47,480 nt of DNA from a virus (lineage: Duplodnaviria > Caudoviricetes), in IMG/VR virus record IMGVR_UViG_3300037962_000579, positions 1-47,480 of that record. One strand, 5' to 3'. Under the pieces are notes generated by a model that saw only the letters and a list, made by a program, of their open reading frames with translations, made no database searches and had not been told where the DNA came from. Position numbers and translations under genes: made by a program. The stretch's first letter is position 1. The number at the start of each line of letters is the position of its first letter. Shown here piece after piece: positions 8,725-43,522 of this stretch.

Positions 8725-8772
8725 TTAAAACCAACAGATGCTACAACCTATGCATAAAGGACACTGTTTCAT
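8725..8772 (-). CDS. Candidate 15-aa Cys-rich micropeptide MKQCPLCIGCSICWF
   Basis: ATG overlaps the upstream stop (TAATG); stop ends 3 nt before the next start; fills the gap. Confidence 0.5.
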   Translation of the reverse strand: MKQCPLCIGCSICWF

Positions 8773-9959
8773 TATTTTAAAGTTAAATTTATTCCAAAGT
8801 TAGTTTGATATATTTTTGAATCCCAGAATTTAGTGTATTCTCCTTCAATAAATATACCTAAAGATTTAGTTACTTTCCACCCAAACATTAAACCCGCCTG
8901 GTAATCGTCCCATTGTTCAAGGCTTGAATCTTTTTTTAATCCGCCTTTACCCCAATTATTACGATTTAAGTAAGTAAAATCTTGTTCACCGGATACATAT
9001 TTATGATAAGGTAATATCCAATTACCGTAAGCATGTAACCAAAAATTATTTTTATAATGATAAAAATCAAAACCTGCAATTGGAGCAACTTCCGCAAAAG
9101 CATCAAGTCCTTCCCATACTTCTTCATTAAAACGGTTCATAAGATTACCAAATATTCTATCTCTAAAATCTCTATCACCATATGCTACTATTTCGCCTCT
9201 TTCATTACGCCAAATCCAATCAAAAAAAGTATCTCCTGTATATTCATTCGTATATGTAGTTGGCTCGTCTGTAAAACCGTAAAAATATCCTAAGCTATAC
9301 CAAGGATTTAAAGGTTCTTCTAAATTTGTTTCTGGATTTATAAATGTTTCATTTAACCATATTTCTATAGGATTATAGCCATAAGGCTTTTGATGTGTAC
9401 GATATATCGCGCCAAGTGATACACTAAATTTTTTACCAATAGGTAATCGCGCTCTTAGTTCCCCAGAAGTATATTCAAAACCTACTTTACCAGATTCTCT
9501 AGTTTCAAATTTAGCTATATGATATTTACCGGTATGTCTAACAAATAATCTTTTATTAGTAAATTTATCACCGTTTACTCTTTCTTTTTCCCAATGTAAT
9601 AAATATTCTAAACCTTTTACAGCTGCTGTAGGCGCAGATAAACCAACATTGTTTTCAGTGCCATTATAAAAATTAGGTTTACTTTCGTAACCAAACCGTG
9701 CTAATTTACGTATACCTATTCCATATCTATAATCAAATGGGTGATAAGTTGTTTCATCTATAACGTTTGGTATTGCGTATAAGTCTTCTGGATTTGTTCT
9801 TATAAAATAATCAGAAGTTTCTAATTTTGCATTAGCTATATTACCAGCTGCATAAAATGTACCGTATTTTAAAAAATCTTTATATACATTTTTAAAAAAC
9901 TGTGCGTTAGTATTAAATGATATAATTAAAGGAAATAGTACTAATATTATTTTTTTCAT
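8772..9959 (-). CDS. Putative outer-membrane beta-barrel protein
   Basis: Sec signal ...SFNTNA|QF; aromatic-rich alternating strands; terminal strand FGINLTLK. Confidence 0.6.
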   Translation of the reverse strand: MKKIILVLFPLIISFNTNAQFFKNVYKDFLKYGTFYAAGNIANAKLETSDYFIRTNPEDLYAIPNVIDETTYHPFDYRYGIGIRKLARFGYESKPNFYNGTENNVGLSAPTAAVKGLEYLLHWEKERVNGDKFTNKRLFVRHTGKYHIAKFETRESGKVGFEYTSGELRARLPIGKKFSVSLGAIYRTHQKPYGYNPIEIWLNETFINPETNLEEPLNPWYSLGYFYGFTDEPTTYTNEYTGDTFFDWIWRNERGEIVAYGDRDFRDRIFGNLMNRFNEEVWEGLDAFAEVAPIAGFDFYHYKNNFWLHAYGNWILPYHKYVSGEQDFTYLNRNNWGKGGLKKDSSLEQWDDYQAGLMFGWKVTKSLGIFIEGEYTKFWDSKIYQTNFGINLTLK

Positions 9960-10231
9960 TTTTTTCTTTTTACATTTTTAACTCTACGCGGCTTACCTGC
10001 TGGTTGACCTAATCTTTTCTTTTCTGCTATTTTTTTACGTTTTTGTGAAGCAGTCATTTCGCTTGCTGTTGTAGGTGTTTTAGAAGATACTCTTTTACTG
10101 GGTCTACAATAAGGTGTTCCTCTTTTTTCTCCTTTACGTCTGCCGCAAGGTTTACCAGTGCGAACATCTACCCACTTTTCCTTAAACCAACGTTTAAGAG
10201 CGAGTCCTTTTGCTGTTTTTCTTACTGCCAT
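9956..10231 (-). CDS. Small basic protein (LKRWFKEKWVD...CG...YCRP family)
   Basis: K/R-rich; motif recalled from marine phage and large DNA virus proteins. Confidence 0.7.
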   Translation of the reverse strand: MAVRKTAKGLALKRWFKEKWVDVRTGKPCGRRKGEKRGTPYCRPSKRVSSKTPTTASEMTASQKRKKIAEKKRLGQPAGKPRRVKNVKRKK

Positions 10232-10517
10232 TTTTATTATGTTTTTTTCTTATTGCTTCTTTACCGCGTTTAGCTATAGCTGCTTGTTGTAATTTACCTG
10301 CAACTTTTGCTCGCTGCTCTAATACAGTTAATATTTGTATTTTTCTAGCAAAGGGCTTTTTAATTCTTTTTACTTTTGCAACAGTAGCCCTAGCATCAGC
10401 AGGAGTTGCAAATTTAATGCTAACCGTATCTCTAGGGTTTTCATCTGTGTACAATCTACGGCCAGACCCTTTAGGTTTTTTACCTGTTCCAACTTTAGGA
10501 TCTTTTCTTTTTGACAT
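10194..10517 (-). CDS. Small basic protein (RRLYTDENP family)
   Basis: KDPKVGTGKKPKGSGRRLYTDENPRDTV; overlapping gene chain. Confidence 0.7.
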   Translation of the reverse strand: MSKRKDPKVGTGKKPKGSGRRLYTDENPRDTVSIKFATPADARATVAKVKRIKKPFARKIQILTVLEQRAKVAGKLQQAAIAKRGKEAIRKKHNKNGSKKNSKRTRS

Positions 10518-10755
10518 TTTTAGTTCCTAATTTTTTATTAACTATATTTCTAGTTCTTTTCATTTTAGCAGCATAGCTGGCGTTCTTGCCTCTACTAAAT
10601 ACTATTTGTTGATTTAAACTACCTATTATAGCTCGTTTATTACGTTTTCTACTACGTATTAACCAATTAGCTAGTTTTTCTGCAGAAAGCTCTTTAAACT
10701 TGCCTTTAGCATCAGGATATTTAGAATCTTTCCATGTAGGTCTTTTGCTAGCCAT
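10495..10755 (-). CDS. Small basic hypothetical protein
   Basis: 86 aa K/R-rich ORF with A-rich leader. Confidence 0.65.
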   Translation of the reverse strand: MASKRPTWKDSKYPDAKGKFKELSAEKLANWLIRSRKRNKRAIIGSLNQQIVFSRGKNASYAAKMKRTRNIVNKKLGTKNVKKKRS

Positions 10756-11281: not shown

Positions 11282-14200
11282 CTATAATTTTTTAGGTTTT
11301 AATCTTTTACTTTTTAAATCGCTTTTATTTTTAGGCTTAGGTGGATCAACTAAATTTACGTCATATTTAGAATATCCAAGAGCAAGCGCAATTGATTGCC
11401 AATAATCTGTTTCTTGCCTTAACGGGGTGCTAAGGTTATCCAATTTTCTTATTACGCGGTCTGCAGGTATATTAAATAATACAGATGAAGTCTCTCCTAC
11501 GGCCATAATAGCTGGATTATCAAAGCTTATACCTTCAGTAAATATTTTTTCTCTTGATTGTTTATATGTAAATTTTCTACCAACGCTAAGAGCTTTATTT
11601 ATTTTTGAACTTATAGGTGGCGATATAGAAAGTATTTCAAGAGCGGCATTATCATAATTTGGTCTACCGCTTTTATACTGATTTATAGATTCTAAAATTA
11701 TATTTTTCCCTGCTGAAACAACTGCTCCGCCAAAACCAAATCCTCGTAAAAATCCATCTGTAACTTGGTCTGCAGTTCTAATAACTCTTTTTTGTGTTCT
11801 TTCTTCATCTTCATCTTCGTCTAAAAATGAAGCAAATACTGCAGTTTGTAAGGTATTAAATACAATTGATTGTAAAGCATAATAATAGCTAATTCTAACA
11901 ACTCTTTGCATATTACTTTGTGCTAATGTTTTGCCTTTCATTGGCCTTTTAGCTACTAAATCTTTTATATCTTTTATAGCTCTTCTGTTATATTGCATTA
12001 ATACGTTACCAAAATTTAATATAATTCTACCAGCCGGACTTGCTTGTTGTTGAGAAACTCTATCCGGTCTTGCAGATTGCTGTGTTTCTTCAGCAGTTTC
12101 TTGAAAATCTAAAAATGCAGCTTCTTCCGCTTCTTTTTGCTCAAGACCTTGTTTTTTATAAGTATTAATTCTATTGCGATAAAAACTAGCACCGCCTAAT
12201 GCTATAGCCGCGGAATCACCTAATTGTGTAAGAATAAAACCTTTTTTAAGTAAAAGAGAAGTAATAGCTTTAAGAGAATTACCGCCTTGCTCAGCTACTT
12301 TTGCAATCTCATCTGAAGCAACATCTGTTTTTACACCGGATCTTCTTTGTTTTAAAAAATTAGAATTAAATAAAAAAGCAAAATCTTTAGAAAATTGTTT
12401 AGTGTTAGCTAATGCTTTTCCTGCGGCAATAGGATTATTATCATCAAAGTTTATAAAATTAGTAAATGATATTTGCTGTAACAATGCAGAACGAGAATTT
12501 AAAAACATAATTGTACCAACCGTATCCTGCACCCAATTAAACAAAGCATTTGTTATTTTATTTTTACCAAAAGGTCTTCTTCTTCCGGTTTTCATACGAT
12601 ACAAAATATCTTGTAAGGCTTCTACATAGTTTTCACCAAATCTACCTTTTAATTTTTTTAAATTTTCTTTTGAAAACAAAGCATCAACGTTTTGTTGCCA
12701 AGGTTCTAAAAACTTTGCTCTCGCTGTTTTATTAACATAACTTAATAAATCTGTTGTTAATGTTCCCGAAGTCCAATTAGTATCCGGCTCTATATATCCT
12801 AAAGCAGTTATTTTTTTAATATTTTTAGCAAATTCTAATAAAGGCTTATTATTATTAATATATTTTATTGCTGCATTTAAATCTTTTTCTGGTATATTTT
12901 TACCATCAGTTTCTTTTATATTATATCCTAAACTATTCCATATATATAATCTTACAGCTTGTTCATTTGTAAATCCTGTTTCATTTATTTTTTTAAATTT
13001 TATTTTTTTACCTTTTTCGTCTGTAACTTTTTTAACTAATTTTTTAAGGTCTTTATATTGATTTACAGTTTGTTGTTTTGCAGCATCAAATTGAAACATA
13101 GCTTTTGCAAAAGGTTTTAATAAATTATTTTCAAAAAATTCTAAATTATTAGCACCTTGTTTTCCTTTACCTGCTATATAATATAATAAACCTGTAAAAT
13201 CATCTGCAGAAGGTGGCAATAAGCGCAATCTTTTATTTGCTTTAGCTAAATTTTTAATTCTTGCTTCACTTATATTTTCTTTTATACCAGTCGCTTCCGT
13301 TATTATTTTATCAAATTCTTTAACAGCATCTTTTAATTCATTATTTTCTTTTAAATCAAAAAATTCTAAATTATTTTTTTCTAATTCTTCTTGTACTTCT
13401 TTATTATATCTAATATCTTTAGCATCTTTTGTAAAATTATGATTTTTAGGCATTGCTGATTTTGTGCTTTTATCATATATTTTAGATAAATTAGCATCTA
13501 ATAAATCAACATGAAAATTATCTAATGATTCATTAAGTTGATTTAAATTTATATCACCTTTAACATATTGCATCATTATATTTACAGCATCATTTATAGG
13601 AGGAGTATGCTCAACTTTTAATCTTATAGGTAATTTATTATCTTTAGTTAATGATATGATTCTAAGAGGAAACATCACACGTAAAGGAGCTCTTTGGTTA
13701 GCTCTCATAGATTCTAAAAATGCACCTGCCCCCTCTAAATCTTTATTTTCTTTAAAATTTTCTAATTTTTCTAATATTAATCTTTTATTTCTTATTTGAT
13801 CCTCTTGATGTAGCTCGCTTAATAATTTAAAAGATTTTTTAAAGTTAGAATCAAAAGATTTTAATTTCTTTTTAATATTAGTTGCAGGATTAGAAAAATC
13901 TACTTTAGGTCTATATCTATTTTTTATTAGTTCGTTTAAAGATTTATGATATTCTTTTGGAACGTTAGGTTTTAAAAGATTTTTAACTAAATTGGGATTA
14001 TTATTATATTTTTCACCTATTGCAGATTTAGTTAAAACATTTTTTAATCCAGTAAAATTTAAATTTATAATTTTTTGTAAATCAAATAATTTTTGTTCAT
14101 CAGATAAATTTTTATTAGCAAAAATTTCTTTTATTTCGTTTTCAATTCTAGGAATTTCATTTTTCTCAACTTTTTGAGCTATTGTTTGTTCAGTGTTTTT

Positions 14201-17200
14201 TGCTTTTTCTTGTACAAAAACTCTAGTAGATTTAGTAAAATCTTTTTCAGTTGTATTTTCATATGAAGAAACAATAGCTTCTTGTTGAATTTCTGAAACA
14301 TTTTCTTTAGATAAATATTTTTTTAAGTCTTTTATAGCCTTTTTAACAGCGGCGCTAAATTTCATACCACCTTGAACAGAAACTTTTAAAGACTGTAAAA
14401 ATACTTTACCTGCAGCGTGAGTTAATTCCATAAGACCAAAACTTGCTCTTAAGTCGCCGGGTTCTGGTTTTAATGTATCCCACTGCGCTATCCATGTATC
14501 TATTTGATTTATAATTCTAGAACCAACACCTGCGGGCACATCTTTATCAAGTAAATCTTGTCTTTCTGAAAATTCTTTTTCAATATTAGGATCTGATTGT
14601 AAAGCTTCTCTTACACCTCTTGCGCCAATTACTTCTGCTAGTGTTTCAGCCAAACTTATTTTTCTTGCACGTAAAGTTGTATAGCCAGCACCTTCTGTAA
14701 AAAAATTAATAAACTGTTCTTTTGTAGGTGTTGTATATGTGAATATATCTTCTCCTACCGCTGTTTTAGCTCTTCCCGTTTTTACAGGATTAAATAGCTT
14801 AGAAAGTCTTTTATTTTTAGCATCATTTGAAATATTATTTATTAAATCTTTATATAGTGTATCTAATAAGCCCACATATTCACTTAATTGCGCTTCTTTT
14901 TGATTAAACTGCCCTCCCAAAGATTTTAAAACATCTTCTCTTAGCGCTACTTCGCCTGCTTTACGTATTGCAAATAAAAAACCTTGTTGTTTACCTTTAA
15001 CTCTTTCTGTAACACCGGGTAATCTACCTTTTAATATTCTTTTACCAATTTGTATAGATTGTTCGCTTGTAAAACCTAATTTTTCACCTATAATATTTGC
15101 TTCGGCTGTATTTTGTTCTTTTTCAATTTGTGTTATAAAATCCGATGCAATACCTTTTTGTTCTGTTACATCTGTTTTACCAATTATTTCTCCTTCGGCA
15201 GTTGTTTCAACTAAATCAAAATATTTTGGGGCTCTTTTAAGAAGTAGCGGTTGTACATATGCACCAAATTCTACACCTGAATCTATTTTATAAGTTCCAA
15301 TAAGTTTTGAAAATTCTTCATTAACAGCACTTAAAACATCTTCTTTAGTTAAACCGGACTGAATAGTTGGATTATATAATGTATTAACGGTTTTATTAAT
15401 TAATCCTGCATTGTTTTTAGTAATGTCATCTTTTGCTTTTGATACTTCAATTTCAGTGCTATTTTTATCTTTAATAATATTTATTAGCTCTTTATTTTTA
15501 GCAGCAATGTTTTGATTTTTTTTAGAAACTTCTTTTACTGTATTATCTACTTTTTGTCTTTCTTTTAAATATTGTTCTTTATAAACGTTTCTAGCAATAT
15601 CATATTCTTCTTTTGTGATTGTTTTATCAATTCTATATTTTTTTTGTAAATCATTTAATATAGATTGATATTTTTTAGCTAAATCCGGTAAATTAGCTAA
15701 TGTTTTTAATTGATCTTCAGCAAATAAATTAATTTCTGCATTACTTTTTTTAATTATAGCTTTAATTTCTTCTTGTCTATCTTTTATGCTTTGATTTATA
15801 GCATTTTTTACGTTTTTGCCTTTAGCACTTAATAAACTCTTTTTTAAATCAAAAATTTCATCTGTTTTTTTATTTATAGCTTCAACATCTGATTTATTTC
15901 TTAATCTGCTAGCAGCTTTTTTTATTTCAATTAAAGAAAGACTTCCGGCTAAAATACCGGATGATTCAGGTGATCCAGCAGCTGCCGCTCCTAATACTAA
16001 AGCTGTTGCTTCTTGTTTATTAGCTGTAAAACCTGTGCCAACAACACCACCTCCTATCATTCCTAAAGCAAAATCTTCAAGAGATTCCCAACTAAAAACA
16101 TAATCGTTCATAGCAGAAGCTACCTCAAAAGCACTTTTTCTTTTTGCAAGAGGTTCTTCAGCAGATTGTAAAAACCCTTGAATAGTTTCTGTTCCTCCCT
16201 CAGCTAACGCGGCATAAGCTCGTCCAGCAACTTTTTTTATAGCACCAGCATTCATTCGCTGTATAGCGTCTTTCATTTTTCCTAATCCAAATCTTTCAGA
16301 AACACCGCTTAAACTCCCAACTACTAAGGGCCCATAAAAATCAGCGTCATCGCTATTCATAAATTCTATTTCATCAACTCCTAATTCTTTTGCTCGTATT
16401 GAATTTTGTCTATAAAAACTATCTGCAAAAAAATCTGTAATTAAACCAGCACCTCCAGTAGGTGCAGCTACTGCAGCACTTGAGCCTATAGATGTTAGTA
16501 CGTCAAATATGCCTGATGCTATTTCATTTAAATCGCCTTTTTTAAATCCTTTAAAAACATCGCCTACTTTTTTTTGTGACGCAATAGCTTCAATTTTTTT
16601 CATTTCTAAAATTGCGTTTTCTACTTCTTCGTCGCTTAATCCTACTTTCCAAAAATCAGCTACATTTGGATTATTTACAAATTTATCAACTGCCTCATCT
16701 CCAAATATTTTATTTGCTACAGCTCTTGTAGTTAAAACTAATCTATCATCAAAACCACTTATACGAGCAATCATATTATCTAAAGAATTTATATAATTGT
16801 TTCTTTTCGGTTGTTTTCTTGCTTCTTGTATTGCTCTTTCAAAAGCCGCCATTTTATCTTCACGCGCTCGTCTTTCAAACTCTTCCATGTACTCATCAGA
16901 AGCAGGTTCTGAAGTTTCAGGTATAGCAGGTATACCTTCTGCAAATTCAACTATCTTAGATGGTATAGGTTTAGGTTTTAAACCACCAAATCCATCAGGT
17001 ATATATTCAACTTCTGGAAACTCCGAAGAAGTATCTACCAATTCGAATTCCGTATTCAGTTCTTCGGATGCTGGTGTTTCCTCCACAACCGCATCCGGTG
17101 TTGTGGGTGTTGGCTTTCCCAATTGAACTCTTTTTAAACCAAATCGTTTAATATATTCTTCTAGTGCAAGATTAGCCTCTGATGCCGCCGCACTAACTTG

Positions 17201-17236
17201 AGCTAAGCTATATTCTTCGCCATTATATTCAAACAT
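11282..17236 (-). CDS. Giant (1984 aa) internal virion/ejection-type polyvalent protein
   Basis: Position after tail genes; Gly/Ala hydrophobic segments near both ends; helical multi-domain layout. Confidence 0.7.
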   Translation of the reverse strand: MFEYNGEEYSLAQVSAAASEANLALEEYIKRFGLKRVQLGKPTPTTPDAVVEETPASEELNTEFELVDTSSEFPEVEYIPDGFGGLKPKPIPSKIVEFAEGIPAIPETSEPASDEYMEEFERRAREDKMAAFERAIQEARKQPKRNNYINSLDNMIARISGFDDRLVLTTRAVANKIFGDEAVDKFVNNPNVADFWKVGLSDEEVENAILEMKKIEAIASQKKVGDVFKGFKKGDLNEIASGIFDVLTSIGSSAAVAAPTGGAGLITDFFADSFYRQNSIRAKELGVDEIEFMNSDDADFYGPLVVGSLSGVSERFGLGKMKDAIQRMNAGAIKKVAGRAYAALAEGGTETIQGFLQSAEEPLAKRKSAFEVASAMNDYVFSWESLEDFALGMIGGGVVGTGFTANKQEATALVLGAAAAGSPESSGILAGSLSLIEIKKAASRLRNKSDVEAINKKTDEIFDLKKSLLSAKGKNVKNAINQSIKDRQEEIKAIIKKSNAEINLFAEDQLKTLANLPDLAKKYQSILNDLQKKYRIDKTITKEEYDIARNVYKEQYLKERQKVDNTVKEVSKKNQNIAAKNKELINIIKDKNSTEIEVSKAKDDITKNNAGLINKTVNTLYNPTIQSGLTKEDVLSAVNEEFSKLIGTYKIDSGVEFGAYVQPLLLKRAPKYFDLVETTAEGEIIGKTDVTEQKGIASDFITQIEKEQNTAEANIIGEKLGFTSEQSIQIGKRILKGRLPGVTERVKGKQQGFLFAIRKAGEVALREDVLKSLGGQFNQKEAQLSEYVGLLDTLYKDLINNISNDAKNKRLSKLFNPVKTGRAKTAVGEDIFTYTTPTKEQFINFFTEGAGYTTLRARKISLAETLAEVIGARGVREALQSDPNIEKEFSERQDLLDKDVPAGVGSRIINQIDTWIAQWDTLKPEPGDLRASFGLMELTHAAGKVFLQSLKVSVQGGMKFSAAVKKAIKDLKKYLSKENVSEIQQEAIVSSYENTTEKDFTKSTRVFVQEKAKNTEQTIAQKVEKNEIPRIENEIKEIFANKNLSDEQKLFDLQKIINLNFTGLKNVLTKSAIGEKYNNNPNLVKNLLKPNVPKEYHKSLNELIKNRYRPKVDFSNPATNIKKKLKSFDSNFKKSFKLLSELHQEDQIRNKRLILEKLENFKENKDLEGAGAFLESMRANQRAPLRVMFPLRIISLTKDNKLPIRLKVEHTPPINDAVNIMMQYVKGDINLNQLNESLDNFHVDLLDANLSKIYDKSTKSAMPKNHNFTKDAKDIRYNKEVQEELEKNNLEFFDLKENNELKDAVKEFDKIITEATGIKENISEARIKNLAKANKRLRLLPPSADDFTGLLYYIAGKGKQGANNLEFFENNLLKPFAKAMFQFDAAKQQTVNQYKDLKKLVKKVTDEKGKKIKFKKINETGFTNEQAVRLYIWNSLGYNIKETDGKNIPEKDLNAAIKYINNNKPLLEFAKNIKKITALGYIEPDTNWTSGTLTTDLLSYVNKTARAKFLEPWQQNVDALFSKENLKKLKGRFGENYVEALQDILYRMKTGRRRPFGKNKITNALFNWVQDTVGTIMFLNSRSALLQQISFTNFINFDDNNPIAAGKALANTKQFSKDFAFLFNSNFLKQRRSGVKTDVASDEIAKVAEQGGNSLKAITSLLLKKGFILTQLGDSAAIALGGASFYRNRINTYKKQGLEQKEAEEAAFLDFQETAEETQQSARPDRVSQQQASPAGRIILNFGNVLMQYNRRAIKDIKDLVAKRPMKGKTLAQSNMQRVVRISYYYALQSIVFNTLQTAVFASFLDEDEDEERTQKRVIRTADQVTDGFLRGFGFGGAVVSAGKNIILESINQYKSGRPNYDNAALEILSISPPISSKINKALSVGRKFTYKQSREKIFTEGISFDNPAIMAVGETSSVLFNIPADRVIRKLDNLSTPLRQETDYWQSIALALGYSKYDVNLVDPPKPKNKSDLKSKRLKPKKL
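17007..17236 (-). CDS. Predicted 76-aa transframe product of the -1 frameshift
   Basis: First 41 aa of the giant protein, then ANTHNTGCGCGGNTSIRRTEYGIRIGRYFFGVSRS* (TGA 17009-17007). Confidence 0.55.
17065..17120 (-). promoter_or_regulatory. Predicted -1 programmed ribosomal frameshift signal (G_GGA_AAG + H-type pseudoknot)
   Basis: In-frame X_XXY_YYZ heptamer 17120-17114; 7-nt spacer; S1 CCACAAC/GTTGTGG, S2 CGGATGC/GCATCCG. Confidence 0.75.
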
Positions 17237-17254
17237 AGTTATTAATTATTTAAA

Positions 17255-18886
17255 TTATTTTGGTAAATTACCTGTATCTATTCTACCTGTTTCAAGATTA
17301 AATCTAGGAAGAAATCTATTTTTTGTAATATTTCTTCTAGTAATTTCTTCAGGATCCATAAAATTTTTCTGAGCTTCTCTTATTATTTCTGAAAAAGCTG
17401 TACGCAGGTCGTCATTATCTTCGCCAAATTTTCCATCTCTCATTTTATTTAAGAAAGCCCCAAAACCTGCTTCTGTGGTTAAATTAAAGTCTCGGTTTTT
17501 TCCATCAACATTTAATGTAATAGTATTTCCGTCTCGACTTGTACTAACAAAAGTATCAGGGCTAAAGTTTTCTTTAACAAATAATTCAGGGTTACTGACT
17601 ATTAAATTATATTGTCGTGCAGCAAGTATTCTATCATCATCGCTAGCGCCGCCGCCACCAAAACCGCCGCCACTACCTCTTGTAGAATCGGGTTTTTCAG
17701 TTGTAACTTGACCTTTTCTAATAGCTCTACCATTTCGTTTATTATAACCAACACCCGCTCTGCTAGTTAAAAATTCTTGTTTTATATAATCGCTAACAAT
17801 ATCTAACGCAAACTGTTTATTGTTTTCAACAATTGTTTTTAATTTATCTTCTTTTATTTTACCGTTTTCGTCTAAAAATTCCTTATAAGCAGGGTTATCA
17901 GTTATATTTTTAGCTAAAACAAAGCTGCCATTATTAACTAACCCTTGCACTGTCATATATGCAGAAGGAAAATTATCATCACTAACTTCTCTAAATTGAT
18001 TTTTTGCAAAATTTTCAGCACCAGTTTCAATAGAATTATACCATGTATTAGTTGGTACGTTTGTTATTATATTTCCATCTGAATCTGTATCATATTTGGG
18101 AGTTGCTAATTGTTTAGTAAATACACTACCAAATTTTGCGTTTTGAATAGTATTATAAAAATTATATTTTAATTTAAAATTATCTTTTAAATATTCAGAA
18201 TCCATAGCTTCTGTATTAATAAAAAATACTTGCCCGTTTTTTGTTACATCAAAACCGCTTTTCATTACACCAGCTGCATTAAGCTTTCTACTTTTTTTAA
18301 TACTTTTAGGGTCAGAATTATTAATTTTAACAAAATCTATTAAAGATAAACCGGTTATCTTATTACCATTTACATCTAAAAAACTAGCATCTGAAACTTT
18401 AGAATCATATAATTGATCATCACCCACAGCTTCTAAATAAGCAGCTAAGTTTGTATATGCTTTTTTATCATTTAATAATTGACCTAATATTTGTTGTTGT
18501 GTTTCTTTATTTCCTTTTTTTACTGCCTGATTATATAAAGATTGATAATTTTTAAAATATTCTTTAGCATCAACAGATAAAAAATCATTATTTTTTAATT
18601 TAAGATATTGTCCTTCATCAAGTAAAAATTCATTACCTTCAACACTGTTAAATATATCAACCGTAGTATCTAATTTAGCAGGTTTAACAGGTTTATACTG
18701 TTCTCTAAAACTTTTTATAAAAGATTTAGCAAAAACACCTTCTTCCGGAATTATACTAATAGGTGATTCATAAGTGCTTCTAGCAGTTGTTTTAACGCTT
18801 TGAGTACTAGTAATACCTCCTATATTTGAAAGCCCTTTAACCTGATTCTTTACAAAATCGTCAATATTATTTGTGTGTTTTGACAT
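17255..18886 (-). CDS. Putative internal virion protein (543 aa)
   Basis: Located between two internal-protein-like genes; no motif recognised. Confidence 0.55.
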   Translation of the reverse strand: MSKHTNNIDDFVKNQVKGLSNIGGITSTQSVKTTARSTYESPISIIPEEGVFAKSFIKSFREQYKPVKPAKLDTTVDIFNSVEGNEFLLDEGQYLKLKNNDFLSVDAKEYFKNYQSLYNQAVKKGNKETQQQILGQLLNDKKAYTNLAAYLEAVGDDQLYDSKVSDASFLDVNGNKITGLSLIDFVKINNSDPKSIKKSRKLNAAGVMKSGFDVTKNGQVFFINTEAMDSEYLKDNFKLKYNFYNTIQNAKFGSVFTKQLATPKYDTDSDGNIITNVPTNTWYNSIETGAENFAKNQFREVSDDNFPSAYMTVQGLVNNGSFVLAKNITDNPAYKEFLDENGKIKEDKLKTIVENNKQFALDIVSDYIKQEFLTSRAGVGYNKRNGRAIRKGQVTTEKPDSTRGSGGGFGGGGASDDDRILAARQYNLIVSNPELFVKENFSPDTFVSTSRDGNTITLNVDGKNRDFNLTTEAGFGAFLNKMRDGKFGEDNDDLRTAFSEIIREAQKNFMDPEEITRRNITKNRFLPRFNLETGRIDTGNLPK

Positions 18887-18903: not shown

Positions 18904-19617
18904 TTACATATCGCCCAATCCGCTGCCGCCAAAATCGCCTCTTGACTGATTGTTATTACCTGAAGTTTCGCCCATGCCACCATTATTATTACCGCCTTGA
19001 TTAAACCCGCCGCTTAAAGCAAAACCACCTAAAGCGCCAAAAGCAGTACCAAGTCCAGCAAATTGTGCTTGTCTTCCAGCTTCTGCTCGCGCCTGAGCAT
19101 TCATAATTTGTTGTTGAGCTCTATTTAATTGTTGTAATTCTCTTCTTTCTTGTTGGCCAAATACAAAGCTTCTTCCTTTAACTTCTGCTTCATAAAGTTG
19201 TCTTTGTAATGCAGCTTCTCCTTGAGCTCTTAATTGTGCGTTTTTAGCTTCTTGTTGTTCAATACTAGCTGCAACACCTTGTTTAGCTTTTAAAGCTGCT
19301 GCGGCAAGCGCTGTAGCCCCTCCTGCGCCTGTTCCTGTAGCTCTTAATGTATCTAACGCACTAGCAAGCGATAAATCTGTTTGTTGTGCCTGCATTTCTG
19401 CTGCTTGTGTAGCAACAGTTAAATTAGCAAAGGGATTTGAAAGTTGTGATGCTGCTCCTGCAAAAGGATTTATAATATCTTGTCTGCCTGCTTCAAGTTC
19501 ACTTAACCTTTGCTGTGCTTCTCTTTGTCTTCTTTGGGCTTCTCTTCTTCTTCTACCGCCGCCAATTGCTTGAAATATGCCGCCTAGAGCTTGTACACCG
19601 AGTGCTACTGGATCCAT
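18904..19617 (-). CDS. Putative internal virion/ejection protein (Ala/Gln/Gly-rich)
   Basis: MDPVALGVQALGG N-terminus, helical AQ-rich body, Gly-rich hydrophobic C-terminus, as in podoviral small ejection proteins. Confidence 0.6.
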   Translation of the reverse strand: MDPVALGVQALGGIFQAIGGGRRRREAQRRQREAQQRLSELEAGRQDIINPFAGAASQLSNPFANLTVATQAAEMQAQQTDLSLASALDTLRATGTGAGGATALAAAALKAKQGVAASIEQQEAKNAQLRAQGEAALQRQLYEAEVKGRSFVFGQQERRELQQLNRAQQQIMNAQARAEAGRQAQFAGLGTAFGALGGFALSGGFNQGGNNNGGMGETSGNNNQSRGDFGGSGLGDM

Positions 19618-24000: not shown

Positions 24001-25753
24001 GAACGTCTTCTGGTATATCTATTTGAGTGCCTTGCGCGTAAGTATCTGGTATTGGTTCATTAAAAGTTATATTTAAAGCATCACCACAAAATGAGGCATT
24101 ACCAGGAGTTGTATCATTAATAACTGTTCCGTTATCCCATGAGCTAGCATTAAACGTTGAAGATTTACCTTCTACAAATACGTTACCTGCTTTTGTTGTT
24201 GAAGTTAATACAGGTGATTGTCTTCCATATTTATCAGAAAGAACAACACCTACTTCATAATTTCTTTTTTGTTTTATAGAGTGAAAACTATATTCTGTAT
24301 GTAAATAAGTTGTTGTATCAAACTTAGCGCTAGAACTAGCTACAAAATCTAAACCTGTTATATTATTACGTATAGGTAATTCTCTATCCTGTACAAAATT
24401 ACCATATACAACTCTGCTTCCAACTATTTCTTGTGCTTTTGCGTTTAAAGGTACGTTGTCATAAACTCTTGTTGTTTCTCTTTCTGGCAAAGTTTTATAA
24501 GGAAGTGTAGATTTATATGTGTATTCTAAATAATTACGAAAAAAATTTAAAGCATCTGAACCTGTTTCCTCAGGTGTCATTACTTGACTTTTAAACGTTG
24601 TATCAGGTAAACTTAATGTTTCTACAGACCTTATTAAATTATTATTAGATTCACGATATAAAATTTCTATATCAGTAATATTAAAATCTTTATTAGGTGT
24701 ACTAGAAGGCATACGAATAAACATTTTAATACTGTTTATAGAGTTAACCATACCTTTAGAATCACCAGTACTTTCGTCTTGAAAATATGGTTTACCTTTT
24801 TTAAATATTTGTTTTTGTATAGCTGTAGTAAGCTCTGTTGTTTCAGGTATAAAACAAGCTTGAGTAAACGGTGCTATTGTAGAAAATTCACCGTCTGCAA
24901 ATTTAAATCTATAAGAAAATTGTACAAATTTTTCTTTTAAAAAATCACCATTTACATCATTAGCAATAGTACCATCAGATGTTAAACCACTTTGATTTTG
25001 TACAAGCATTAATGTATTAGCATCTAATATACCTTCAGGTGGGTTTTGTTCATTGTAATTTAAAAGTTGCGGCGCAAAAAACGGTGCAAACTTCGCAACA
25101 GATATTTTATCTTCACTGTCATAATATGTATTATCTTGTAAAGCTTTTCTAACATTTATTTTTCTAGGTTGATTAAAACCATCTGTAAAAAATAATAAAT
25201 CATCTATTAAATTAACACCTGTTATTAAAAAATCTTTATGAAAATTTAAAAACTTACCTGATACAATTTTTTTAGTAATATTTTCTGTACCTATTTCAAC
25301 AACATATATTGCACAAAAGTTACTATCATCTGCCATAGAAGGTCCGATTGGCTCGCCGTTGTTATTTATTTCACCCACTAAACCTGTTGGAATTGAGCTT
25401 GTTTGATTGGTATAATTAATATTATTTATAATTGTTGTTGTATTAAACGGAAAGTCTGTAACAAAATAAAATATTCTATTATTTTTTTCATCAGCATAAA
25501 AACCAATTATTTCAGCGTTGTTTTTAACAGCAATTAAATCATTAGTTGTAAGTGCTGCTAATTCTGTTTCGCTTGCTTGATCCATGCTTACTAAAGAATT
25601 ACCTAAAACATTTTGTATAGTACCAACATCCGAATTTTCAGACGTAGTAATTTGTATGTTCTGAGCTTGTCTGTATTCTCCATTGGGCAATAATCTTGAA
25701 TCAATATCAAGATTCATTTTACCCTGAAGAAATACTTTTTTATCTTCAGCCAT
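21041..25753 (-). CDS. Large tail structural protein (1570 aa)
   Basis: FLQGKMNLDID.RL.PNGEYR.A.N start, LLFFTDGFNQPRKIN, QFSYRFKF.DGE; beta-rich. Confidence 0.65.
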   Translation of the reverse strand: MAEDKKVFLQGKMNLDIDSRLLPNGEYRQAQNIQITTSENSDVGTIQNVLGNSLVSMDQASETELAALTTNDLIAVKNNAEIIGFYADEKNNRIFYFVTDFPFNTTTIINNINYTNQTSSIPTGLVGEINNNGEPIGPSMADDSNFCAIYVVEIGTENITKKIVSGKFLNFHKDFLITGVNLIDDLLFFTDGFNQPRKINVRKALQDNTYYDSEDKISVAKFAPFFAPQLLNYNEQNPPEGILDANTLMLVQNQSGLTSDGTIANDVNGDFLKEKFVQFSYRFKFADGEFSTIAPFTQACFIPETTELTTAIQKQIFKKGKPYFQDESTGDSKGMVNSINSIKMFIRMPSSTPNKDFNITDIEILYRESNNNLIRSVETLSLPDTTFKSQVMTPEETGSDALNFFRNYLEYTYKSTLPYKTLPERETTRVYDNVPLNAKAQEIVGSRVVYGNFVQDRELPIRNNITGLDFVASSSAKFDTTTYLHTEYSFHSIKQKRNYEVGVVLSDKYGRQSPVLTSTTKAGNVFVEGKSSTFNASSWDNGTVINDTTPGNASFCGDALNITFNEPIPDTYAQGTQIDIPEDVLVMISGNQLTAENINTGSGVFLTDNFSVGDFIKGRYRDFVKVTGVSTVRLVCDDVIAHDAIKGGQQKIIFKYKISPYGWYSYRIVVKQQEQDYYNVYTPGVFNFQETSEEKSYFPILGDSINKVTRDKEFANEQEKGLSTSKTRLFPKVISLGTSSDQVQSNSGIIDVISVGTAKEQSLVNKNGHVYNFIFEPEKNHLLAQIPYVSETKSFGIDKANTAIHTFTLPANERFEVTNDSMKQIDDNDASITFAASSNTADTATKIVVGDFLRGADKDLVKVTAISSPKITADGNIDVETYEGVSTKSINSTLNIGTSSATKKTAYDFPVFNYIPGDTLHVFETEPFESALDIYYETATSGYIHELNEDIAVYNSPNKISFSDTTNTFTEGKDYTKSTPTKIANINIGSSLGDTFNSLTHDLVLNKAEAVKDENQPEIVTNDFQVTKDTSNLYILQCTKNFVYSGVTTGSFVFKFKFTVTDKNTNESFTDTAVANLTNEGPLIVLSGSTNVFDLEDAGVGDTITILDANNGAAPISKEGIGFYFRAGNVNTGAIQNVDDTGSVKINHETGELVLEKVFLGDLDLIVFICDNVINFDLEGIDSALNNGGKEITEQIVINNKGYSIFTIPEENFAENDNDVANASKHWYNEVTNTVPNLGLINQRTKNGNTITDKGKGITFAAYSFPDRQGTRTNNITSSSGNFSIDLDNLTNELPTINKIINPSNTTCIQKSGQSPQTANIPIAVMLISANNMSQNHYKYDDKLFGFALLPGEGGNANIENNFLKIDIDGEYLCKSGLSGTAGDQTTNNSPYVYDNFISTFKNADATKHGVKNLRELGGDIHLFSEQYNDKNGNSVGGFDITSNTAKTKKKAMPSFAWNDTISVATHGGSEASGTGAILAYNDAGSISNYLPRPSSGVLGDNDTQTHLLHETPIIIYKNKDSNGIISWSRDQAAEGIAYRLYFESSRGQGSDAIKFNVPNVHLVRLNPNL

Positions 25754-41977: not shown

Positions 41978-43522
41978 TTATTTTATATTATTAATTACAC
42001 AATCTGTAGATAATATTGTAGTTGCAACAGATACTGCGTTTTTTAATGCTGTTTTTGTTACAAGCACTGGGTCAACAATACCTTTTTTAAACATATTTAC
42101 CGTTTTTCCAGTAGTAACATCAACGCCATAACCTTTTTTATTATCATAAACAAAATCTATATCAGAGTTTTGAAGTATTTTAAAATAAGGTTCACTTATT
42201 GCTTTTTTAAATATATTAGCTCCCTGTGTAGTACTGCTTATATTTTTTGCAGCGTTAAGAAGAGCTACGCCGCCACCGGGCACAATACCTTCTTTAACAG
42301 CGGCTTTTGTAGCGTGTATCGCATCTTCAACACGATCTTTCTTTTCCTTATGCTCAACATCTGAGTTTGCCCCTACAGTTATAACCGCTACGTTTCCGGA
42401 AAGTATACCTAATCTTTCTTGTAGCTTATCGGTCTTTAAACTCGGGGTGTTGCTATTTAAATGCTCTTCTATAATATTAATTCTTTCTTTAGAAGCTTCA
42501 GGTATGTCTTTTATTTTTAATACAGTTGATTTTGAATCAATAACAGCTTTTTCACAAGTACCTAACATATCTGGTTTTATAAGATCTATATCATCACCAA
42601 ATTCTTCGTTAATGTGTAAAGCCCCTGTAATTGAAGCAATATCATCTAAAAAATCTTTTTTCCAAAGGTTAAAGCCAGGCGGAGTTACCACACACGCTTT
42701 TATATTACCTTTAAGTTTATTCATTATTACAGCAGCCATAGGTTGTTTTTCTAATTCAGCTATAATAAGTATTGAACGATTATTTTCAACAGCATATTCT
42801 AAAATAAACTGTATTTTTCTAATCGTAGTAATAGGAGAGCTCACGAGTAGTACTAATGGATTGTTAAGCGTGCATGTTTGTTTTGCTACGTTGGTCACAA
42901 AATTAGGGTGCGCATATCCTTGATTTATTTGTGAGCCTTTTACTACATCAACACTTGTAATCTCTGACTTAGTATCGGGGTCCATAAGAACTACCCCATT
43001 TTTACCTACTTTATTAAATGCTTCGCCAATAACACTGCCTAATTCAATATCATTGTTTGATGATATAGAAGCAACTTGATTAAGCATACTACCTTTTATT
43101 GGCACAGCTATTTTATCTAGGTATTTAACAACAGACCCGTAAGCCTTAATTATTTCATTTTTTATATCTCTTATAGAGCTTTTATCCTGTTGTTGTTTTG
43201 CATATTTTAATATTGCATGCGCAAGAACTGTTGCGGTTGTTGTACCATCACCTGCTTCACTAACTGTTTTTCTTGCAGCTTCTTTAATTAATGTAGCCCC
43301 AATATTTTCTACTGGGTCTTGCAGATTTATAGCATTTGCTACTGTAACACCATCTTTTGTTATTGTTGGTCTGCCTATTACATCTTCTAATATAACACAC
43401 TTGCCGCTGGCTCCTAATGTAGAGCCAACAGCCTTTGTGAGTTTGTCAATTCCATTAAATATCTTATCTTGAGCATTACTGCCAAAGTTAAGATCTTTAA
43501 TTTGATCTTGTGAATTTTGCAT
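41978..43522 (-). CDS. groEL: Chaperonin GroEL (phage-encoded; no GGM tail)
   Basis: ITKDGVTVA, AGDGTTTAT, RVEDA, GIVPGGG, GIVDP..V. Confidence 0.95.
   Translation of the reverse strand: MQNSQDQIKDLNFGSNAQDKIFNGIDKLTKAVGSTLGASGKCVILEDVIGRPTITKDGVTVANAINLQDPVENIGATLIKEAARKTVSEAGDGTTTATVLAHAILKYAKQQQDKSSIRDIKNEIIKAYGSVVKYLDKIAVPIKGSMLNQVASISSNNDIELGSVIGEAFNKVGKNGVVLMDPDTKSEITSVDVVKGSQINQGYAHPNFVTNVAKQTCTLNNPLVLLVSSPITTIRKIQFILEYAVENNRSILIIAELEKQPMAAVIMNKLKGNIKACVVTPPGFNLWKKDFLDDIASITGALHINEEFGDDIDLIKPDMLGTCEKAVIDSKSTVLKIKDIPEASKERINIIEEHLNSNTPSLKTDKLQERLGILSGNVAVITVGANSDVEHKEKKDRVEDAIHATKAAVKEGIVPGGGVALLNAAKNISSTTQGANIFKKAISEPYFKILQNSDIDFVYDNKKGYGVDVTTGKTVNMFKKGIVDPVLVTKTALKNAVSVATTILSTDCVINNIK

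Follow-up and report, generated by a model that had tools for sequence, protein, structure and literature searches.

GGGAAAG is the slippery site at which phage lambda makes gpG and gpGT. In that system a −1 shift yields products that share a domain at a set ratio, and the part read in the new frame docks on another partner; G_GGA_AAG is highly shift-prone in Escherichia coli, and G_GGA_AAG, NNA_AAG, G_GAU_UUU and runs of nine A residues are all documented shift or slippage sites (PMC5009743). The E. coli copA gene shifts near its 5′ end, where a −1 shift produces CopA(Z), a short protein of 70 aa that shares the N-terminus of the 834-aa full-length protein (PMC5009743, PMC6771820). In dnaX, the tau and gamma products depend on a ribosomal shift in E. 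coli and on transcriptional slippage at a 9-base run in Thermus thermophilus, and recoding in phage virion genes is described for T7 10B, T3, A2 and Listeria PSA, A118 and A500, with a pseudoknot in PSA (PMC5009743).

Here we analyzed a 47,480-nt stretch of phage DNA (the window) in which a candidate −1 shift site lies at codon 40 of a 1984-codon virion-type gene. This locus differs from each described system. The lambda shift lies near the 3′ end of its gene and gives a longer product, whereas the product here is short; lambda G/GT serves long-tail assembly between the major tail and tape-measure genes, whereas the neighbours here are a 543-aa gene, a 237-aa gene and virion structural genes. 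CopA(Z) represents premature termination with its function in the shared domain, unlike the selected 35-residue new-frame tail of this phage virion-type gene. Gamma of dnaX ends one codon past the shift and has no conserved new-frame domain, in contrast to the 31–58 selected open codons of the window-type cassettes. The phage capsid and tail cases produce C-terminal extensions, often Ig-like, at gene ends, unlike the early shift in the window.

Comparative sequence evidence indicates that the cassette is real and widely conserved, representing a known recoding mechanism in a new setting; its hidden product appears to be selected, and we infer a function for it below. A literature search, with few subscription papers within reach, found no paper describing a frameshift of this type; the word "frameshift" is absent from the main text of the Panino (PMC11590407), crAss001 (PMC10172136) and methylation papers and had zero occurrences in the North Sea paper. 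PRFect tests overlaps between consecutive genes (PMC10274946), and it would overlook this product, as gene callers do, because the short protein lies wholly inside a longer ORF. If the interpretation is true, phage recoding would comprise a further class next to tail chaperones and capsid extensions, found in a large group of marine phages.

A candidate frameshift cassette at the start of the giant gene

The first-pass annotation had proposed a pseudoknot-stimulated −1 frameshift on the minus strand, making a hidden 76-aa protein from the start of the giant gene. All of its coordinates were reproduced: the heptamer, the spacer, both stems and loops of 2, 1 and 11 nt (Table 1). Both 7-bp stems are perfect. 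In the −1 frame 37 codons can be read before the stop, giving the predicted product of 41 shared and 35 new residues, and the described GC-rich island likewise held up, the 60-nt segment starting at the element being the GC maximum of the gene (0.57 versus 0.30).

Table 1. Features of the giant gene and its predicted frameshift cassette in the window
Feature	Position	Strand	Remarks
Slippery heptamer G_GGA_AAG	17114..17120	-	Codons TTG GGA AAG, in frame at codons 39–41
7-nt spacer	17107..17113	-	5–7 nt in 49/53 cassettes (sample 3)
Predicted H-type pseudoknot	17065..17106	-	S1 17106–17100/17089–17083, S2 17097–17091/17071–17065
−1-frame tail	17007..17120	-	37 codons, stop at 17009–17007
Conserved core YGIRIGRYFFGV	17019..17054	-	Predicted amphipathic beta-hairpin, three invariant glycines
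Giant 1984-aa virion-type gene, 0 frame	11282..17236	-	Third of three putative ejection genes
Shared N-terminal module, codons 1–41	17114..17236	-	Acidic, pI 5.2; exchangeable between relatives
543-aa gene	17255..18886	-	Second putative ejection gene; gene-order context
237-aa gene	18904..19617	-	First putative ejection gene; independent bait for relatives

A scan for perfect 7 + 7-bp H-type layouts gave two matches on the minus strand (this element and one at 24739) and seven register variants at three sites on the plus strand; because the scan also matched other sites, such a layout is by itself rare, not unique. Under an author-made stacking-energy score that leaves loops unscored, the pseudoknot was equalled by 1 of 500 base shuffles, and a nested-only fold of the element gave z = −2.55. 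No Rfam covariance model reached its gathering score in positions 16800–17400 or in six related loci, and blastn of the element against GenBank phages returned chance matches only. Three sequencing runs without a flag as the source gave contigs X4, X5 and X8, whose letters are identical to the window across most of the element. Contigs from four RNA libraries include short pieces touching the region at depth 2–3, from which neither expression level nor slippage is readable.

The window carries an in-frame heptamer of the X_XXY_YYZ type, a covarying predicted structure within the 5–9 nt spacing range and an open −1 frame without a start codon, an arrangement that, as far as sequence can tell, is the canonical layout of programmed −1 frameshifting. 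During translation of the giant gene, the predicted pseudoknot very likely makes ribosomes pause and slip back one base on G_GGA_AAG. In the window phage a fraction of them would very probably shift by −1 with tRNA-Gly and tRNA-Lys in place.

Conservation of the cassette among related phages

Relatives were collected as three samples, picked by the stem pattern (sample 1), by the neighbouring 237-aa gene (sample 2) and by the tail pattern (sample 3). The loci are related and the samples partly overlap; the counts below are not independent events. The stem-pattern search, which did not include the heptamer, retrieved 28 loci, 25 of them distinct. All 25 carry the tail motif, with 33–42 open −1 codons, and the heptamer position holds GGGAAAG (17 loci), GGATTTT (7) or GGGAAAT (1). 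Single-base codon differences in the tail were synonymous and non-synonymous in a ratio of 848:513 in the −1 frame versus 157:1240 in the 0 frame. Across 40 sequences of the same geometry, 95.9% of stem cells are paired, with 6 pairs and 20 cells changed on both sides; this paired share was reached by 0/500 shuffles, and slid controls pair at 29–57%. The variation seen in this set is limited, because most of the sequences came from patterns overlapping the stems. The heptamer, spacer and stems, on which the first step of the proposed mechanism rests, are thus not only present but kept by covariation.

The 237-aa bait yielded 108 loci, 84 of which reach the giant gene; 75 were kept after L121, whose start was not found, and near-duplicates were dropped. 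The tail motif occurs in the −1 frame within codons 1–150 in 46 of the 75 non-redundant phages (41 when the expression was made stricter); the +1 and 0 frames, four segments further along and the upstream gene lacked it in all 75. In 45 of these 46 loci a predicted H-type pseudoknot follows an in-frame slippery site, and the stems differ widely in sequence between loci. The slippery sites are GGGAAAG in 12, AAAAAAG in 8, AGTAAAG and GGATTTT in 6 each, AAAAAAA and AAATTTT in 4 each, GGAAAAG and AGCAAAG in 2 each and TCAAAAC in 1. The predicted structures would thereby supply several dozen frameshift pseudoknots from natural bacterial systems, their stems exchanged throughout. The mean pseudoknot score was −25.9 versus −9.7 for 3023 control heptamers, a comparison that favours the observed scores over single controls because each is the best of 1–11 candidate heptamers per locus; 41 of the 45 scores were reached by at most 3/60 shuffles. 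The −1 frame opens a median of 5 codons before the heptamer and then stays open for 31–58 codons. The motif expression fixes the glycines; at positions that it leaves free, the synonymous to non-synonymous ratio of the −1 frame in these 46 loci was weaker, 1104:1551 versus 469:2254.

These data bear on the alternative that no recoding occurs, in which the structure would have some other RNA role, or the −1 motif would be a shadow of 0-frame constraint or a separately started overlapping gene. Non-synonymous variation is found in the 0 frame where the −1 reading is preserved, different slippery sequences replace one another at a single position, and no ATG, GTG or TTG precedes the motif in the −1 frame in any of the 46 loci, all of which speak against it. 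Its support comes from L148, which has no heptamer, and from the cysteines of the tail, which may follow from the stem sequence; on balance it is highly improbable. In L148 (7379–7680) the −1-frame tail motif lies in a 9-codon open stretch that contains no slippery heptamer; the cassette may be in decay there, or the frame may be entered by some other route.

By eye, the other 29 of the 75 phages fall into 10 in which heptamer and pseudoknot accompany an aromatic tail of variant form and 19 that lack all three. The 19 are scattered on a quick 237-aa tree (15 changes versus 17 when shuffled), with only 3 of the 15 changes forced by strong branches. This scatter suggests repeated loss or recombination, and the absence of the cassette from 19/75 phages means that its product is not universally required.

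Sample 3 used a DNA pattern for the tail alone and shares about ten contigs with the earlier samples. Among 120 loci, 42 were short-flanked and 7 redundant, leaving 71 for analysis. Over the searches as a whole, L097–L100, with weak genome matches, were left out, and L004, L005, L085–L089 and L091–L094 were rejected as unrelated. The tail pattern had caught L085–L089 and L091–L094 as unrelated phage proteins with a cysteine-rich end bearing two CGCGC motifs. Each of the 71 tail matches is read in the −1 frame close to a gene start, and the open stretch that holds it also contains a slippery site. The surrounding 0 frame is open for at least 100 codons in 70 of them and closes after 42 in L234; none of the tails stands alone. 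About 550 stored IMG/VR stretches are estimated to match one tail pattern. L096 is a full cassette on a 117-kb contig binned as a Flavobacteriaceae MAG; the bin may have taken in a phage contig, which hints at the host group.

The heptamer and pseudoknot test was passed by 53 of the 71 loci, and the remaining 18 comprise 3 weaker pseudoknot-like, 4 hairpin and 11 A-run loci. The four hairpin loci combine G_GGA_AAG with a 5-bp hairpin at 6 nt that shows exchanged pairs. The eleven A-run loci have a run of A9–A10, no consistent structure and no cysteine cluster; runs of at least nine A residues occur a single time in 168,720 nt of giant-gene body, and such a run stands before the tail in 11/11 of these structure-less loci. 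One shift signal can thus stand in for another: the place is taken by any of several heptamers followed by a pseudoknot, by G_GGA_AAG and a hairpin, or by an A9–A11 run alone. The first-pass annotation had named homologues without the heptamer, stems or open −1 frame as evidence against itself; its claim survived this comparison in three samples, and the homologue alignment that it had called for revealed a retained slippery site of varying sequence, stem covariation and −1-frame conservation.

The predicted product of the −1 frame

The 35 new-frame residues are basic (pI 10.1), and the core motif is matched once only across the six frames of the window. Among the 46 tails of sample 2, motif positions 1, 3, 5, 8, 9, 10 and 12 are hydrophobic in 96–100%, positions 2, 6 and 11 are glycine, as the search expression demanded, and basic residues flank the motif. 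AlphaFold placed strands at 21–27 and 30–36, forming a two-strand hairpin with a local pLDDT of about 70 and leaving the remainder unstructured; the whole-tail model is weak (mean pLDDT 57.5, pTM 0.24). The hairpin register sets glycine 2 opposite glycine 11, a pair that is replaced by two cysteines in MW202828. The strands are about 5–7 residues long in the window clade, and the tails of phi38:1 and Gundel form longer alternating hairpins. Selection on the tail is visible in the substitutions, and its folding as a basic amphipathic beta-hairpin is predicted. Taken together, the −1 tail is very probably a functional selected peptide.

The tail had been described in the first-pass annotation as carrying a CGC motif and an aromatic stretch. 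The aromatic tail is general; the cysteines did not prove to be a universal part, since the 11 A-run loci lack the cluster. At least two cysteines occur in 44/45 pseudoknot loci, and T precedes Ala/Val codons in 143/242 cases versus 1700/4637. A required cysteine metal site was rejected, as it is inseparable from the stem constraint and the cluster is missing from the 11 A-run loci. The constant part of the product is a predicted amphipathic beta-hairpin, around which the cysteines and the N-terminal domain vary.

Searches of the ESM Atlas gave no usable match for the N-terminal module (N-module) or the tail. Eight database proteins of 70–100 aa match the tail profile, and seven of these (P0121–P0124 and P0126–P0128) join the N-module and tail in one frame. 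They are probably assembly errors or rare mutants, and possibly natural fixed forms, and carry no weight here because the six looked up were clusters of 1–2 members.

Aromatic C-terminal clusters can serve as protease tags, and the tail might accordingly be read as a degradation tag that clears aborted product, with the shift doing nothing more than lowering output of the giant protein. The small numbers in which giant ejection proteins are needed, about six of each in crAss001 for example (PMC10172136), would suit this reading. A stop directly after the site would suffice for that purpose, as in dnaX, and the three invariant glycines, fixed register and Cys–Cys replacement point to a specific fold; we consider the degradation tag very unlikely.

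Cultured relatives carry an A-run form

The window phage is related to phages of Bacteroidota. Its terminase is 65% identical to that of MW202828 (an uncultured record), 46% to those of Flavobacterium elemo phages, 43% to that of Maribacter phage Panino and 38% to those of Cellulophaga phages. The Pervagoviridae, Pachyviridae, Elemovirus and Panino have terminases 31–46% and capsids 25–42% identical to those of the window, and they share its small-medium-giant gene order. An aromatic tail stands at the same place in these groups, preceded by an A-run; the window clade, of which the collection searched has no cultured member, has a heptamer and a predicted pseudoknot there. BLAST comparison of the window giant protein with the giants of these four groups gave no match.

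Ten GenBank records were compared (elemo, phi38:1, Calle_1, Gundel_1, MW202828, Panino, phi13:2, phi18:3, phi19:3 and phi46:3). All ten have an A9–A11 run 33–66 codons into the gene; beyond it, one frame behind the giant ORF, lies a basic, Gly/aromatic-rich stretch, which is diverged and was recognized by eye. The A-run form is present in the cultured phages phi38:1, Calle, elemo and Gundel. Polymerase slippage or an unstimulated shift is the likely way into the −1 frame in these A9–A11 relatives, an apparent interchange between ribosomal and polymerase slippage of the kind that dnaX displays between E. coli and T. thermophilus.

In the records of Panino (L101) and of phi13:2, phi18:3, phi46:3 and phi19:3 (L104, L136, L137 and L138), the giant gene is split at A9 or annotated without its N-module. 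The cassette would account for this split in the four Pachyviridae records and in Panino. Homopolymer under-calling is the most likely cause; the four Pachyviridae records presumably derive from 454 sequencing, and in Gundel_1 an A10 run keeps a homologous N-module in frame. Obligatory slippage that makes the giant protein from A9 in these five phages was judged less likely, because Panino was sequenced by Nanopore only (PMC11590407), and the podoviral phages Gundel and Calle, sequenced by Illumina (PMC8776804), have A10 in frame.

Proteomics of phi38:1 covering infected cells and virions is public (PXD066074 / MSV000098485; PMC13288928) and would allow a direct test of recoding. The −1-frame tryptic peptides of phi38:1 gp101 would be AFGIEFYLWSGSFK and FGWFR; supplementary file 3 of PMC13288928 contains no gp101 peptides.

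Giant gene, N-module and proposed function

Residues 1300–1984 of the giant protein have 2129 homologues at E ≤ 1e-10, and a model of this part (mean pLDDT 61) matches, among predicted structures and with low TM-score, the giant structural protein of Gundel_1 (E 1.2e-6) and polyvalent proteins. A PDB search with this model gave no match, the giant protein has no Pfam or PHROG match, the N-module has no Pfam match, and the 237-aa profile matches no solved structure. That profile (A3) does match Gundel gp72, phi38:1 gp99 and Panino gp72, and the small-medium-giant order after the tail-region structural genes recurs in cultured relatives. The designation "ejection protein" from the first-pass annotation draws support from gene order and the predicted fold match; because the matches are to predicted structures and the PDB search gave none, the ejection role is used here as a putative one.

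The N-module, in which the first-pass annotation saw a possible packaging or targeting tag, occurs in several types that are swapped freely among close relatives and often tandemly duplicated. It has been exchanged between giants that are 81% identical in their C-terminal part (P0007), a copy sometimes lies inside the giant, L112 and L189 have a second copy just after the cassette, and L129 and L206 have the same N-module without a cassette. In contigs from other phages, similarity to the window begins at the first bases of the heptamer and extends through the stems, with divergence just upstream; the cassette boundary therefore coincides with the shift site.

We tentatively favour a role for the 76-residue protein inside infected cells, where it would accompany the giant protein by binding membrane or would serve it as a docking adaptor, a reading that we hold at somewhat below even confidence. 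Within it, the hairpin would bind a membrane face or a conserved assembly surface and the N-module would pair with the N-module of the giant, a step that we consider slightly less likely than not. The adaptor step draws on the alternating hydrophobic pattern, the basic flanks, the hairpin model, the Cys–Cys pair of MW202828, N-module exchange and the lambda G/GT precedent; a complex prediction with two N-module copies scored 0.01 and carries no weight either way. Frameshifting would fix the ratio of the two partners and keep them matched upon module swap.

The product might instead be packaged and ejected with the giant protein, its hairpins inserting in the host envelope to seat or open a DNA channel. 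It shares its N-terminus with a virion-type protein, the longer alternating hairpins of phi38:1 and Gundel would fit insertion, and membrane channels are built from ejected cargo in T7, with the same expected for crAss001 (PMC10172136). Window-clade strands are short for a bilayer, however, and the cassette is absent in 19/75 phages. The phi18:3 record, in which the syntenic giant ORF gp123 has an MS/MS note and the N-module ORF gp122 is only "hypothetical", argues weakly against a high-copy virion component. We regard ejection of the peptide as unlikely.

Repeated all-or-none loss, the rapidly exchanged N-module and the membrane-like tail would also suit an accessory factor that acts on the host, such as a decoy tethered to the membrane that blocks ejection by kin phages or absorbs a host sensor of the giant protein. 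Such a factor would come from a structural operon and would probably be made late, and the short protein has no match among the Pfam families searched, defence-system libraries lying outside that search; this explanation is quite unlikely.

A broader reading is that many aquatic phages of Bacteroidota have a fourth ejection-module protein, hidden in the first 100 codons of the giant gene and made by lineage-specific recoding through a pseudoknot, a hairpin or poly-A. Its amphipathic beta-hairpins would oligomerise in the membrane and anchor or open the DNA channel, with the N-module as a self-recognition code; taken jointly, these proposals are unlikely to hold in full. The question bears on how short-tailed phages recruit and position ejection proteins.

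Three further features of the minus strand of the window were recorded. Downstream of the giant gene lie three small, very basic ORFs of 91, 107 and 86 aa (9956–10755). Positions 8772–9959 encode a 395-aa protein without a PHROG match, which has a signal-like N-terminus and an aromatic C-terminus resembling that of outer-membrane proteins. Positions 41978–43522 encode a phage GroEL chaperonin (PHROG 5725).
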